A DNA stretch of 64,000 bases from Bacteroidales bacterium (GTDB taxonomy: Bacteria; Bacteroidota; Bacteroidia; Bacteroidales; P3). The notes under the pieces are model-generated. The model saw only the letters and a list, made by a program, of their open reading frames with translations. It did no database searches and had not been told where the DNA came from. Positions 2,595 to 7,221 of the stretch are shown here, in pieces; position 1 is the first letter of the stretch; each line of letters begins with the position of its first letter. The stretch spans positions 24,051 through 88,050 of the forward strand of contig JAFUYA010000049.1 of assembly GCA_017477025.1 (NCBI GenBank), given 5' to 3'. The position numbers were made by a program, and so were the translations under genes.

Positions 2595-3590
2595 ATGACA
2601 AGCAATTTTGTTGATTACGTAAAAATATTTTGCCGTTCGGGTAAGGGCGGTAAGGGATGTATGCATTTGCTTCACGCTGCTAAAGAGTTCAAAGGCGGAC
2701 CTGACGGCGGCGATGGGGGAAGAGGCGGTCATATTATCCTGAAAGGCAACGCTCAATTATGGACTTTGCTACACTTGAAATACACAAAACATATTTTTGC
2801 ACAGGACGGAGAGGCAGGGGGACAGAACTTGCGGCACGGAGCAAACGGAGATGACCGTATAATAGAAGTGCCGTTGGGCTGTGTTGTCAAAGATGCCGAA
2901 ACTGGTGAGCAATTGTGTGAGATAACAGAAGACGGAGAACAGAAGATATTGTTTTCAGGCGGGAGAGGCGGCAAAGGAAATGATTTTTTCAAATCTTCTA
3001 CTAACCGGATTCCCCGTTTTGCACAACCGGGAGAGGAAGGAACGGAAAAATGGGTGATAATAGAATTAAAAATTCTTGCAGATGTAGGATTAGTAGGCTT
3101 TCCTAATGCAGGAAAATCAACATTGCTTTCCGTAGTCAGTGCCGCCAAACCGGAGATTGCAAACTATCCTTTCACAACTCTTGTGCCTAATTTGGGAATC
3201 GTTAAATATCGTGATGACAAATCATTCGTTATGGCAGATATTCCCGGAATTATTGAAGGAGCAAGTGAGGGTAGAGGTTTGGGATTACGATTTTTGCGTC
3301 ATATTGAACGAAACAGTATTTTGTTGTTTATGATTCCTTGCGACACGGAGCGGGATATTAATGAAGAATACAATATTCTTTTAAACGAACTGCATACTTA
3401 CAATCCCGAATTATTACACAAGGACCGTATTCTTGCAATTACCAAATGCGATATGATGGACGAAGAGATGATTAATGAGATGAAAAAAAATATTTGTGTA
3501 GATTGCGAAGTTTATTTTATATCTTCCGTTGCTCAACAAGGAATAACCGAGTTGAAAGACGCAATATACAAAAAGATTATCGCACAATAA
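2595..3590 (+). CDS. obg: GTPase Obg/CgtA
   Basis: The N-terminal glycine-rich Obg fold is present (GKGGKGC...[22 protein letters not shown]). It is followed by G1 [19 protein letters not shown] and TKCD GTPase motifs. Confidence 0.95.
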
Positions 3591-3617
3591 ACATACGTAA
3601 AGCAACATAATAGAACA

Positions 3618-3655
3618 AGACGGCAAGTAAAGAAATATTACCTGCCGTCTTTTGT
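3618..3655 (+). terminator. intrinsic terminator after obg
   Basis: Stem agacggca (3618-3625) pairs with tgccgtct (3643-3650), followed by a T run. Confidence 0.7.
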
Positions 3656-3866
3656 TCAGAGTTACTTACTCTTACTTATTTAACAATTAATGTTTTTTGT
3701 TACACCACCGCATTTAACACAATAAACATACAAGGCAAGTTTATAATATCTTTTAATAATAAATTTGTAATGATGTAAATTTTCAAATTATACATACATT
3801 AAATAAAATTTTATTTGTATTTTTGCAAGTGCAATAGTGCAAATAAACGAGCAATAACTATTATTT

Positions 3867-4028
3867 CGTATTCAAAATAAACCTAGGAAATTTATTTTTG
3901 ATAATTGAAATAAAATGTTCAGATAAAACCTGGATTTTTATATCCATTATGATTTTAATGTTTATCACCCTCGGTGTTAAACTTTCTATAATGGATACGG
4001 TATTTCTCCTAGGTTTTACCTGAATACG
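3867..4028. repeat. imperfect inverted repeats flanking a 110-bp segment upstream of the methyltransferase operon
   Basis: IR-L is cgtattcaaaataaacctaggaaat (3867-3891). IR-R is atttctcctaggttttacctgaatacg (4002-4028). The shared blocks are cgtattca and aaacctagga. The enclosed segment begins with a TAttTTTG box (3893-3900) and contains a nested 10-bp IR, tatccattat/ataatggata. Confidence 0.4.
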
Positions 4029-4104
4029 AGTAGAAGAGTTAAACACCTTATTTATTTCTGTATTATCAGTAACGATTGATAGTTTTTGCAAAAATTATCA
4101 ATCT

Positions 4105-5097
4105 ATGTCTGATAATAAAAATTTGAGAAATGCCAACAGAGCAAAGAAAGATGAATTCTACACTCAATTAGAAGATATTGAAAAAGAATTAAGGCATTAT
4201 AAACAACATTTCAAAGGAAAGACTGTTTTGTGTAATTGTGATGACCCACGGGTAAGCAATTTCTTTACCTATTTTTCACATCATTTTGAATCGTTAGGAT
4301 TGAAAAAACTTATAACTTCCTGTTATAAGAACCAAGATATAGATTTGTTTTCGCAAAATTCATCAGATAAAGCCGTATATTTGGAATATACTGGCGACAA
4401 AAACGGAAACAAAATACCCGACAGAGAAGAAATAGAAGTAAAACCTTTGCATGATAACGGAGATTTCCGCTCCAATGAATGCAAAGAACTATTGAAGCAA
4501 GCGGATATAGTAGTTACCAATCCGCCGTTTAGTTTATTCAGAGAGTATTTGCAACAAATCATTGATTTTGATAAGAAGTTTTTAATAATCGGCAATTTGA
4601 ATGCAGTATCTTATAAAGAATGTTTTAAATTAATTAAAGACAATAAAATGTGGTTGGGTGCGAGTATTCACAGCGGTGACAGAAAATTCGGCGTTCCTGA
4701 TGATTATCCATTAAATGCTGCAACCTGCGGAATAGATGATAAAGGACAGAGATTTATAAGAGTTAAGGGCGTCCGTTGGTTTACTAATATGGACTACAAA
4801 GAGCGTCATGAAGACTTACCTTTATATAAGAAATATTCAGAAACAGACTATCCTAAATTTGATTATTACAATGCTATAAACATTGATGCAACGGCGGATA
4901 TACCTTGTGACTATGATGGCTTAATGGGTGTTCCTATTTCATTTCTTGATAGATATAATCCTGAGCAATTTGAAATCGTTGATGGCATAGGACGTTACAG
5001 TATGCTCACAGGACCGACGGAAGAAACAAAGGGTAAATATCTTACAAAGGTAAATGATAAGCCTAAATTTGCGCGAATAATTATTAGAAGAAAGTGA
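4105..5097 (+). CDS. N6-adenine DNA methyltransferase, EcoRI-methylase family
   Basis: DEFYTQ near the N-terminus, then CNCDDPRVSNFF, the catalytic motif IV VVTNPPFSLFREY, KKFLIIGN and GVPISFLDRYNPEQFEI. As I recall the sequence, these are collinear with M.EcoRI. Confidence 0.85.
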   Translation: MSDNKNLRNANRAKKDEFYTQLEDIEKELRHYKQHFKGKTVLCNCDDPRVSNFFTYFSHHFESLGLKKLITSCYKNQDIDLFSQNSSDKAVYLEYTGDKNGNKIPDREEIEVKPLHDNGDFRSNECKELLKQADIVVTNPPFSLFREYLQQIIDFDKKFLIIGNLNAVSYKECFKLIKDNKMWLGASIHSGDRKFGVPDDYPLNAATCGIDDKGQRFIRVKGVRWFTNMDYKERHEDLPLYKKYSETDYPKFDYYNAINIDATADIPCDYDGLMGVPISFLDRYNPEQFEIVDGIGRYSMLTGPTEETKGKYLTKVNDKPKFARIIIRRK

Positions 5098-5103
5098 AAT
5101 AAT

Positions 5104-6210
5104 ATGGAAGTAAAATTGCACGAAATAACCGTAAGACAATTAGTTGAGGGTTATGAAAACAGAGAAGATGAGGGCGTTGTTGGTTTCGGCGGGAAATTAG
5201 ACATACGTCCGCCTTATCAAAGGGAATTTATCTATTCCGCAGACAAACAAAAAGCCGTTATTGACACAATATTCAAGAATTTTCCGCTGAATATAATGTA
5301 TTGGGTCAAAAGAGATGATGGTACATTTGAAGTTATGGACGGGCAACAGCGGACTATGAGTATTTGTGAGTATTATTGTTGCAATTTTTCAATAGAAAAG
5401 GACGGCTATTTGAAAGGTTACGACAACCTTACCGACAAAGAGCAGGAGGATTTTCTCAATTATAAACTTATGGTTTATTTTTGTGAGGGCAATGATTATG
5501 AAAAATTGCAGTGGTTTAAGACAATAAACATTGCAGGCGAGGATTTGTCCGACCAAGAAATGAGAAACGCAGTGTATAACGGCTCATGGGTGAATAATGC
5601 AAAGGTTTGGTTCAGCAAAAAAGTGGCAGGATGTCCAGCATACCAGGTAGGAAGCCCGTATATTGCCTCTTCGGTGAAAATAAACCGCCAAGGGCTTTTG
5701 GAACTTGCGATAAAATGGATAAGCAAGGGCAACATCAATGAATATATGAAACAACATCAACATGACAAAGACGCAACGGAACTTTGGAATTATTACAAAA
5801 GCGTCATTGAGTGGGCGGAAAACCTGTTCGGAAAGCCGAGAAAAGAAATGAAAGGCTTACCTTGGGGAGAGTATTACAATGAATACAAAGACCAAGAGTT
5901 TAATCCTGAGGCTATTCGGCAAAGAGTTGATTTCCTAATGCAAGACGAGGAGATAGAAAACAAAAAAGGTATTTATCTTTATGTACTTGACGGAAAAGAA
6001 AAGCATTTAAATCTGCGTCAATTCCCTGAAAACATCAGAAGAACGGTATATGAAAAACAGGAAGGCAAATGTTTTGTCTGCAAAAAGGAATTTGAGTTTG
6101 AAGAAATGGAGGGCGATCATTGGAAATCGTGGCATAAGGGAGGAAAAACGGAAATAGATAATTGCAGGATGCTTTGTCGTGACTGTAATAGGGAGAAATC
6201 GGGAAAATAA
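5104..6210 (+). CDS. DUF262 (ParB/GmrS-like) domain protein with C-terminal HNH endonuclease finger
   Basis: The N-terminus carries PPYQREFIY and the hallmark VMDGQQRTMSI of DUF262. The C-terminus reads CFVCKK...EGDHWKSWHKGG...NCRMLCRDCNREK (CxxC...DH...N...CxxC, an HNH finger). It starts 6 nt after the methyltransferase stop. Confidence 0.85.
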   Translation: MEVKLHEITVRQLVEGYENREDEGVVGFGGKLDIRPPYQREFIYSADKQKAVIDTIFKNFPLNIMYWVKRDDGTFEVMDGQQRTMSICEYYCCNFSIEKDGYLKGYDNLTDKEQEDFLNYKLMVYFCEGNDYEKLQWFKTINIAGEDLSDQEMRNAVYNGSWVNNAKVWFSKKVAGCPAYQVGSPYIASSVKINRQGLLELAIKWISKGNINEYMKQHQHDKDATELWNYYKSVIEWAENLFGKPRKEMKGLPWGEYYNEYKDQEFNPEAIRQRVDFLMQDEEIENKKGIYLYVLDGKEKHLNLRQFPENIRRTVYEKQEGKCFVCKKEFEFEEMEGDHWKSWHKGGKTEIDNCRMLCRDCNREKSGK

Positions 6211-6330
6211 ATTGAAGTATGTTTGATTGTTGCCTGTATTTATCAATGTGAAATATGGAATTATTGAGTGGTTATAGTGAATCAGACACCAATAACAGGA
6301 CCTTTTCGGAATGATTCTTTAAGAAAAACT

Positions 6331-6374
6331 CAATTCTTTTGCGATATTGCATTATTAATATCGCAAAAGAATTG
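6331..6374. terminator. 18-bp perfect hairpin between the convergent HNH gene and the hydrolase gene
   Basis: caattcttttgcgatatt (6331-6348) pairs with aatatcgcaaaagaattg (6357-6374), leaving an 8-nt loop. The T run is on the minus-strand side. Confidence 0.6.
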
Positions 6375-6387
6375 TGTGAAATGCGTA

Positions 6388-7221
6388 TTATTCGTAATTT
6401 TTACGGGCTTGCTCTATAAAATATATTACCTCGTCAGCCACTCTTTGGGGAACGTCAATTTCCATTAAGTGTTTTTCACCGTTAAGCATCACGTAATGGC
6501 AGCCTTTTACGATTTGCCAAACGTACATGTTGCTGTCGTAATGGTCTTGAAAGAAAGGATCTTCGCTGCCGAACAAAAAACCGACGGGAATATCGCAATT
6601 CTTCAAATCATTTTCGCATTCCTCCAAACTGTTCCACAATTTTTCGGGACTGCTTGCGTATTCCTTTATCGCCCAACTCTCCGCCATATCTTCTTTGTGC
6701 AGAGCATTCATTTCTTCCATCTTTTCAGGCAATCCTTTCTCAACATTACGAATAGCGGCAGCCATCATATCTTTTGGATTCTTCAAAAGGTCAAACCATT
6801 TATCGCTAACCTGTTTTTTAAGATGCGGAGCAAGGAAGAAACTTGCGAAATCAATCAACATATCTCTGTGATTGCGGAAAAGATACCAACCCGGAATTGT
6901 TCCGTGACACTTACCTGCGTAGTGAAATTTCTTAATTCCCATCTTTGTTGCGAAATCGTAAACATCTTTTCCCCATTGTTTTCCCCAATGTACCCTACCT
7001 TGTTCGTCTTTTTGGTCGGTAATGCCCGTAAATCTCATAACTATGCCGTAAACGTGGTATTTTTCCGCCAATTTTTCCAACACGGGTTTAAAAGTGTAGA
7101 AAAAGAATGCACCGCTTATCACGATTTCTTCATTTTTTTCGCCAAGCTCCAAATAAGTAAGCTCCGCTCCGTTGTCCAATACAAGACTTTTAGCCTCGCC
7201 TTTGATTTTGTAATCTTCCAT
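6388..7221 (-). CDS. alpha/beta-fold hydrolase
   Basis: 277 aa with a G-x-C/S-x-G-type nucleophile elbow (YAGKCHGTIPG) and the overall length and pattern of an alpha/beta hydrolase. Substrate unknown. Confidence 0.6.
   Translation of the reverse strand: MEDYKIKGEAKSLVLDNGAELTYLELGEKNEEIVISGAFFFYTFKPVLEKLAEKYHVYGIVMRFTGITDQKDEQGRVHWGKQWGKDVYDFATKMGIKKFHYAGKCHGTIPGWYLFRNHRDMLIDFASFFLAPHLKKQVSDKWFDLLKNPKDMMAAAIRNVEKGLPEKMEEMNALHKEDMAESWAIKEYASSPEKLWNSLEECENDLKNCDIPVGFLFGSEDPFFQDHYDSNMYVWQIVKGCHYVMLNGEKHLMEIDVPQRVADEVIYFIEQARKNYE

Follow-up and report, generated by a model that had tools for sequence, protein, structure and literature searches.

The characterised DUF262 enzymes GmrSD, BrxU and SspE are modification-sensing and are stimulated by nucleoside triphosphates (NTPs) (PMC12707154). 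The motif DGQQR is the hallmark of GmrS and DUF262, in which it is a predicted site of NTP binding and hydrolysis (PMC4619093). In the EcoRI restriction-modification (R-M) system the nuclease belongs to the PD-(D/E)XK enzymes, and methylomes have assigned A3 methylation of GAATTC and RAATTY to the EcoRI-methylase family (PMC13436318, PMC4752239), with a Campylobacter methylase as the RAATTY-specific relative (PMC13436318). Gba686I is an experimentally tested BamHI isoschizomer that is non-homologous to the textbook enzyme and is encoded beside a conserved methylase (PMC11754643). Here we analysed two adjacent genes in a 64,000-nucleotide (nt) stretch of DNA from a Bacteroidales bacterium represented by a rumen metagenome-assembled genome (contig JAFUYA010000049.1, positions 24,051 to 88,050), referred to as the window, in which the gene of an EcoRI-family methylase (M) is followed by that of a DUF262-HNH nuclease (R). 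At a probability of roughly 0.8, we consider that the pair would be a compact Type II R-M operon that moves horizontally, is translationally coupled and is possibly nucleotide-modulated.

Domain composition and class of the methylase and nuclease

The pair and its immediate context comprise the following features, in which L003 denotes a related locus from another rumen Bacteroidales metagenome-assembled genome (MAG).

3806..6215, + strand: transferable cassette (leader, M and R), its extent set by homology with L003
4105..5097, + strand: M gene, EcoRI-family gamma-class (NPPF) N6-adenine DNA methyltransferase of 330 amino acids (aa), from Pfam and PADLOC profiles and homology to M.EcoRI
5095..5106, + strand: junction of M stop, 6-nt spacer and R start, TGA AATAAT ATG, with the spacer AATAAT at 5098-5103
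5104..6210, + strand: R gene, DUF262 (possibly ParB/Srx-like, DGQQR), helical middle and zinc-HNH nuclease of 368 aa, from Pfam, PADLOC, AlphaFold2 and Foldseek

The open reading frame (ORF) calls bore out the coordinates, content and 6-nt spacing that a first-pass annotation had given for the two genes, and its domain calls (an EcoRI-family methylase; DUF262 plus HNH) and quoted motifs agreed with Pfam and with the sequence. Both ORFs are genuine, homology-supported genes and not a chance pattern of reading frames.

Residues 6-330 of the M protein cover positions 1-345 of the 345 in PF13651 (EcoRI_methylase; E 1.9e-139, 465 bits, cut-off 26.4), and residues 4-330 matched positions 7-328 of 332 in the PADLOC profile MTase_II PDLC03297 (E 6.6e-125). 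The protein has the motifs DEFYTQ (residues 16-21), CNCDDPRVSNFF (43-54) and NPPF (139-142). It was 50% identical, over its full length, to the genuine M.EcoRI of a 5.6-kb E. coli plasmid, on which the methylase adjoins an annotated 'type-2 restriction enzyme EcoRI'. No solved structure was found for the M.EcoRI family in the PDB. Across the family, residues 293-320 form a variable insertion flanked by conserved blocks. The last ~240 nt of the M gene (~4850-5097, approximately aa 250-330) showed a much higher divergence between the window and L003 than did the remainder of M (~95% identical) and R (97% identical), and the 3' end of M appears to be mosaic or recombined.

In the R protein, residues 34-158 matched PF03235 (GmrSD_N/DUF262; 62 bits, cut-off 33.2) and residues 323-366 matched the HNH family PF01844 (47.6 bits, cut-off 21.4), with PF14279 (HNH_5) also identified at the C-terminus; the Pfam scan of this protein gave no match to PF07510 (DUF1524). 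Residues 2-368 aligned with positions 2-372 of the 372 in the PADLOC profile REase_II PDLC03418 (E 1.6e-123). The motifs of R are QREF (39-42), DGQQR (79-83), CxxC (323-326), GDH (337-339), N353 and CxxC (358-361). In an alignment of 23 nuclease homologues with a mean column identity of 73%, Q39-R40-E41-F42, D79-G-Q-Q-R-T84, C323, C326, D338-H339, N353, C358 and N362 were invariant. C361, the second cysteine of knuckle 2 (residues 354-361, encoded at 6163-6186), is an Asp in approximately half of the family, and in those members the knuckle reads C-x-D-D-N instead of C-x-x-C-N, with C358 invariant. The zinc site of many members may be formed by three Cys plus Asp, or may have been lost.

An AlphaFold2 model of R, built on the alignment, had a predicted local distance difference test score (pLDDT) of 85.9 and a predicted template-modelling score (pTM) of 0.70. 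Foldseek comparison of its N-terminal domain with the PDB gave Noc, ParB-CTP and sulfiredoxin as top matches, at probabilities of 0.8-0.97 with E values of just 5e-3 to 0.2 and low whole-chain TM scores, and PADLOC showed weak similarity of the same domain to NsnA and PD-T4-2_A. The C-terminus resembled the Gme HNH nickase, Cas9 HNH domains and McrA; the Gme HNH structure 4h9d was matched by profile at E 1.6e-6, and the Foldseek root-mean-square deviation from 4h9d_C was 1.9 A over 53 columns. No full-length relative of the model was found by Foldseek in the PDB, and the PDB sequence and profile searches reached HNH domains only, which precluded a mapping of the DUF262 motifs of R onto BrxU or SspE.

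The two full-length PADLOC matches are to Type II models, and therefore a defence-annotation pipeline would label the pair as plain Type II R-M. The first-pass annotation had placed the pairing outside the established classes. This was not the case, as PDLC03297 and PDLC03418 match the two proteins from end to end, with no difference detected at the level of the PADLOC/REBASE-derived profiles, and the pair belongs to a catalogued and very common Type II R-M family. As to a match with a known system, the catalogued models stood, and no named, characterised enzyme was found in the searched literature. A REBASE name for a prototype was not obtained from that literature, the PADLOC papers or the source names of eight nuclease clusters. 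The 'HNH R-M' of Paracoccus DYTN-1 was considered as a prototype and rejected, being an unrelated 16-kDa HNH protein with a GANTC methylase.

The EcoRI system resembles the present one in its homologous methylase (50% identity, 71 of 73 conserved residues), in being a two-gene mobile Type II cassette on small plasmids and, probably, in a target that would be the same or closely related. The nucleases, in contrast, are unrelated: R.EcoRI is a PD-(D/E)XK enzyme, whereas the present nuclease joins DUF262 to an HNH (beta-beta-alpha-Me) domain. The gene order also differs, as EcoRI plasmids have R then M and the present cassette has M then R. Like GmrSD, BrxU and SspE, the R protein has an N-terminal DUF262 domain with DGQQR, a nuclease of the His-Me-finger type at its C-terminus and a regulatory module that likely binds nucleotides. 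Unlike them, it ends in a zinc-knuckle HNH (PF01844) and not DUF1524, has an obligate cognate methylase, is shorter (~360 aa) and has too little sequence similarity to reach the solved members. The lack of DUF1524 and the presence of a cognate methylase indicate that R is not a member of the GmrSD family.

The HNH Type II enzymes KpnI, Hpy99I, PacI, SphI and NlaIII are comparable in having an HNH/beta-beta-alpha-Me domain with a CxxC...CxxC zinc site and a methylase partner (PMC4081073). They differ in that no ParB/Srx-like DUF262 domain is described for them in PMC4081073, and the PDB sequence and profile searches detected no similarity between them and R outside the HNH core. Gba686I is a precedent for a conserved methylase clade accompanied by a nuclease that has no relation to the textbook enzyme for the site concerned, although it represents another family and another site.

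Linkage, coupling and mobility of the pair

The nuclease family is large. A search over 5.8 billion proteins yielded at least 8000 candidates, and all of those scored passed. The best 120 matches were full length, were 55-61% identical to R and came from many phyla, with three closer ones at 75-100%. An exhaustive HMMER search over 1.84 billion cluster representatives identified 401 nuclease representatives at E <= 1e-30, or ~400 nuclease clusters counted at 50% identity. The names given to relatives of the nuclease at NCBI were solely 'DUF262 domain-containing' or 'HNH endonuclease family'.

The linkage between nuclease and methylase was surveyed by using the alignment of 23 nucleases to retrieve 80 metagenome and 80 viral or proviral loci, in which genes were placed by tblastn. 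An EcoRI-family methylase was identified in 73 of the 76 metagenome loci with sufficient upstream sequence (72 upstream on the same strand, one downstream) and in all 78 of the viral or proviral loci (77 upstream, one downstream), giving 151 of 154 assessable loci. Most of the rows in which M and R had seemed non-adjacent were an artefact, in which the variable C-terminal stretch of the methylase ended the high-scoring segment pair at residue 292. The conservation of the two genes as neighbours in other genomes, which the first-pass annotation had put forward as a check, was thus strongly upheld, as was its proposal that they form one functional module.

Among the 135 loci in which the methylase ORF could be delimited, the M stop overlapped the R start by 4 nt in 47, and most of the others were within -11 to +8 nt. 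This overlapping or abutting arrangement indicates one transcript and translational coupling. In addition, one 688-aa cluster representative (P0177) was predicted to join EcoRI_methylase, GmrSD_N and HNH in a single chain; it is possibly an M-R fusion of the same system, or a frameshift or gene-call artefact.

The solitary DUF262-HNH genes are located in L059 (2127-3230), L068 (1242-2333) and L087 (1756-2859). In L068 the ORF abutting the nuclease upstream looks, by eye, to be of RhuM type. These nucleases may have a cognate methylase elsewhere in the genome, or may have a different role.

Plasmids gave a similar picture. Near full-length DUF262-HNH genes were also present on 43 of the 80 PLSDB plasmid records with an EcoRI-family methylase, and all 25 of the PLSDB nuclease matches listed lie on methylase-bearing records. 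In the records whose coordinates were compared, M and R were adjacent, with E. dispar NZ_CP116586 the sole exception. DUF262-HNH is the commonest plasmid partner of EcoRI-family methylases, and the earlier statement that these methylases normally accompany PD-(D/E)XK nucleases was therefore wrong for the family. The EcoRI-type nuclease partner was confirmed on all three of the small enterobacterial plasmids inspected, and similar small E. coli, Klebsiella and Raoultella plasmids among the matches listed probably carry the EcoRI system too. Orphan EcoRI-family methylases also occur, as in V. harveyi p2 and the Campylobacter RAATTY methylase. On five further plasmids (L174, L175, L176, L177 and L178), EcoRI-family methylases were followed by unrelated hypothetical proteins of 201-391 aa, or were fused to a RelB-like domain or a Dcm-type methylase. 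These varied partners indicate that the methylase clade has swapped partners repeatedly, and the small hypothetical partners may be further uncharacterised nucleases.

Several observations showed that the cassette is mobile. L003 carries a 97%-identical nuclease cassette between unrelated flanks, as determined by pairwise alignment, with homology to the window starting at ~3806 and ceasing a few nt after the R stop, and L004, whose nuclease is 82% identical, represents a third genomic context. Small plasmids with M followed by R were found in Lactiplantibacillus, Ligilactobacillus, Mammaliicoccus, Gordonia, Sulfitobacter, Aeromonas, Variovorax, Enterococcus and a rumen plasmidome, with hosts spanning Bacillota, Actinomycetota, Pseudomonadota and Bacteroidota. 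In Geoalkalibacter and Brevinematales the pair was located on the chromosome, in mobile or defence contexts. One nuclease cluster at 90% identity (P0039) spans Brevinematales (Spirochaetota) and MAGs of Bacteroidota/Paludibacteraceae, which would indicate a very recent transfer between phyla; in three loci of this cluster (L007-L009) the cassette lies beside tyrosine integrases and an AAA_13 ATPase. At this locus, identical or near-identical copies of the window's cassette recurred across several independent metagenome assemblies. An empty site was not found among contigs encoding the identical downstream protein, all of which carry the cassette, and the exact Obg protein was not on record. 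A variant cassette in L181 (3481-5556; a 302-aa M and a 358-aa R with no Pfam match) was rejected as a scaffold-gap artefact with runs of N. Apart from its X residues it was 100% and 96% identical, and it is a caution for automated neighbourhood tables.

Likely recognition site, proposed mechanism and alternative explanations

The 134 DUF262-HNH-partnered methylases had a median pairwise identity of 54%, and M.EcoRI, at a median identity to them of 51% and a maximum of 61%, is as close to them as they are to one another. M.EcoRI was nested among the partnered methylases in a neighbour-joining tree, the largest partnered-only clade having 37 of 135 members. Of 73 positions with a conservation of 93% or more in the partnered methylases, 71 are kept by M.EcoRI and 70 by the window enzyme; the number is 64-68 for family methylases that are followed by other partners (Campylobacter, Moraxella, Psychrobacter). 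The nested position of M.EcoRI and its 71 shared residues make a GAATTC-like site likely, and our best guess is that the target of M would be a site of the GAATTC type. In the flanks of carrier loci, GAATTC had an observed-to-expected ratio (O/E) of 0.54 (z -5.1) for the metagenome set and 0.70 for the viral set, and it was the sole AATT-core word depleted, with AAATTT, CAATTG, TAATTA and AATT near expectation.

Within the window the GAATTC at 4153-4158, inside the M gene, is present as first reported, and is the only one between 3500 and 6500. Among the 4-mers of the window, GCGC (2 observed, 45 expected) and CTAG (4 observed, 57 expected) were strongly depleted, and GGCC, CCGG, GATC, AGCT and TCGA had O/E values of 0.3-0.45, which suggests pressure from other restriction systems or mutational bias. 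Palindrome avoidance in the window was rejected as a clue to the present system, as GAATTC is near expectation and the others are depleted for other reasons.

Based on these data, we propose that the methyltransferase would methylate adenine in a short AATT-core palindrome of the host DNA, most likely GAATTC, and that R would be the cognate endonuclease, cutting unmethylated sites through a zinc-stabilised HNH active site (D338-H339, N353, N362). The DUF262 domain, with QREF and DGQQR, probably binds a nucleotide and would gate or stimulate cleavage, by analogy with GmrSD, BrxU and SspE, and the helical middle of R (approximately residues 130-300) likely serves sequence recognition and dimerisation. 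The order of M before R, their coupling and, in one subfamily, a start-codon-sequestering leader would tie the output of nuclease to that of methylase upon entry into a new host. This proposal is the same as one made in the first-pass annotation, namely methylation-protected restriction that is perhaps nucleotide-regulated.

A number of observations weigh against this interpretation. An intact nuclease without an adjacent EcoRI-family methylase was found in three of the 154 assessable loci. The DUF262 domain of R is too diverged for sequence alignment with the solved BrxU and SspE structures, and the Foldseek E for its ParB fold is only ~5e-3, so that nucleotide binding is predicted from motif conservation. 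No paper on the DUF262-HNH nuclease family and no biochemistry was found in the literature searched, and the match to PDLC03418 makes the nuclease catalogued but does not prove it characterised. With regard to the site, many other, unrelated hexamer palindromes were as depleted in ratio as GAATTC and only the flanks of carriers were compared, which makes the flank depletion weak; in the window GAATTC was not depleted (18 observed, 22 expected). Furthermore, the level of identity for motif transfer in the Nanomotif methods is 80%, and M and M.EcoRI share 50%.

A different role for the DUF262 domain has to be considered, in which the methylase marks the host and the domain senses the mark or a nucleotide and licenses nicking or cleavage of invaders by the HNH domain, as in SspE or BrxU. 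GmrSD, BrxU and SspE are NTP-stimulated modification sensors and SspE teams with a host modification module (PMC12707154), and both the invariance of DGQQR in the 23 homologues and the weak similarity to NsnA and PD-T4-2_A would suit such a sensor. We nevertheless consider this arrangement improbable: the best and sole full-length match of R is to a Type II endonuclease model, its nuclease domain is a canonical PF01844 HNH and not DUF1524, and the unit is a minimal one of two genes on plasmids of 4-10 kb, as in classical addictive R-M systems. The tight coupling and the predicted fusion are equally consistent with plain R-M, and no specific pointer to the sensing of N6-methyladenine (m6A) was found.

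The recurrence of the pair in 151 of 154 loci, over many phyla, plasmids and proviruses, with methylase family and orientation unchanged and the ORFs overlapping or abutting, makes it very doubtful that the two genes are unrelated neighbours, that is, a Type IV, non-specific or homing DUF262-HNH nuclease hitch-hiking beside an orphan EcoRI-like methylase. Such an origin would agree with DUF262 being best known from Type IV enzymes, and with the three solitary nuclease genes and the orphan methylases of V. harveyi p2 and Campylobacter. It is further weakened because a nuclease that depends on m6A would kill its own host if encoded next to an m6A methylase. The pair might also be a decayed or inactive remnant, with intact ORFs and a system that no longer works in this genome, as could be read from GAATTC not being avoided in the 64-kb window. 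To this we give very little credence, as both ORFs are full length on their profiles with all catalytic residues intact, near-identical copies occur in independent metagenome assemblies, and a second MAG has a 97%-identical cassette. A mobile Type II R-M system accounts better for the linkage data and profile matches than does any of these three explanations.

Within the Type II R-M interpretation, a broader and rather speculative extension is that the DUF262-HNH nucleases would be the main ancestral partners of the M.EcoRI clade, constituting a GAATTC-specific Type II class that is unrelated to R.EcoRI, has no solved structure and is gated by nucleotide binding to a ParB/Srx-like domain; in a Bacteroidales sublineage it would be under the control of a new cis-acting leader RNA toggling between a long-range helix and a hairpin that sequesters the start codon. 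We regard this extension as tentative and on balance unlikely.

The leader, genomic setting and significance of the pair

Upstream of M, the following features were identified in the cassette.

3818..3825, + strand: candidate Bacteroidetes-type -7 promoter box TATTTTTG (TAnnTTTG), from sequence reading
3850..4089, + strand: structured 5' leader, subfamily-specific, with nested long-range helices, from RNAalifold and a covariance model
4074..4103, + strand: 30-nt near-palindrome GATTGATAGTTTTTGCAAAAATTATCAATC, ending 1 nt before the M start codon, from RNA folding and comparison

The leader was identified directly 5' of the methylase gene in the window (3850-4107) and in L003 (4766-5024), L004 (832-1089), L043 (3638-3903), L045 (1616-1890), L046 (3673-3935), L086 (3592-3845) and, as a short variant, L131 (3774-3952), with a length of ~240-260 nt. 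RNAalifold gave 37 pairs, 20 of which had double-sided changes that keep the pair. The paired cells amounted to 93%, compared to 38-43% in controls slid by 1-3 columns, and the covariation score was 0.43 compared to 0.03-0.10 in those controls; none of 500 shuffles reached the observed values. The G-U pairs lie on the sense strand, indicating that the leader fits an RNA. A trimmed covariance model (R1) matched only directly upstream of M, at eight distinct loci in ~1.4 Mb searched, with no second match elsewhere in the 64-kb window. A search of Rfam 15 with both strands of 3300-6600, at E up to 1, gave no match.

The outer helix of the leader pairs 3851-3863 (GCAATAACTATTA) with 4074-4089, which is also the 5' arm of the near-palindrome, so that the outer helix and the hairpin are mutually exclusive. 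In the RNA fold of 4050-4125 (-20.8 kcal/mol, z -5.6) the AUG lies inside the outer stem, and in L003, L043, L045, L046 and L086 the arms of the near-palindrome are conserved and its loops variable. The mutually exclusive pairings suggest a switch-like layout, and the leader, as far as its predicted pairing goes, may be a translational switch and is a candidate new cis-regulatory RNA of the Bacteroidales cassette subfamily. The terminal hairpin motif alone matched three viral contigs in unrelated contexts with neither M, R nor leader and was set aside as uninformative. The TATTTTTG box was conserved in L003 and L004. TAnnTTTG is the Bacteroidetes -7 consensus; the -33 TTTG was absent at the expected spacing from the box, which is therefore a candidate only.

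The cassette in the window is bordered by the following features.

2595..3590: obg, upstream of the M gene, from the Pfam scan
3617-3651: terminator-like hairpin 3' of obg, from the hairpin and repeat search
6328..6377, strand unassigned: terminator-like inverted repeat between R and the convergent gene, with 21-nt arms that are 95% complementary
6388..7221, - strand: convergent gene of 277 aa, from the ORF call

These flanks agreed with those described in the first-pass annotation as to obg with its terminator-like hairpin and the convergent gene; the label 'hydrolase' for the latter did not find support, as its product had no Pfam match at E <= 0.01. The cassette does not lie in a defence island in this window, in which its neighbours are housekeeping or metabolic genes (obg, Usp, AraC, GDSL lipase and flavodoxin-like genes). 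The inverted repeat at 6328..6377 lies outside the region shared with L003 and is therefore probably part of the host locus.

A perfect 14-nt direct repeat, CACAATAAACATAC, occurs 135 nt apart at 3583-3596, where it overlaps the obg stop codon, and at 3718-3731. The downstream copy is ~75 nt 5' of ~3806, where the homology with L003 becomes clear, and its counterpart in L003 is GCAATAAACATA. The repeat could have arisen by chance or could represent a cassette junction or recombination core. A terminal inverted repeat of the cassette, formed by CACAATAAACATAC on the left and GTATGTTTGATTGTTG past the R stop, was considered and rejected, having an 8-nt core only and being absent from L003.

As an R-M system the pair is routine, being already classified by defence-annotation pipelines. 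For the family, the findings place M.EcoRI in a far larger methylase clade whose usual partner is DUF262-HNH and not R.EcoRI, clearly exemplifying a methylase that was conserved while its nuclease was replaced. No biochemical or structural description of a putative ParB/Srx-type nucleotide-binding domain in a Type II enzyme with a methylase partner was found in the searched literature and the PDB. If the DUF262 domain gates cleavage, Type II and GmrSD-type enzymes would be linked mechanistically, and the nuclease might yield a neoschizomer of EcoRI. Lastly, the leader is a candidate new cis-regulatory RNA for the control of R-M establishment in Bacteroidales, in which such control is poorly known.

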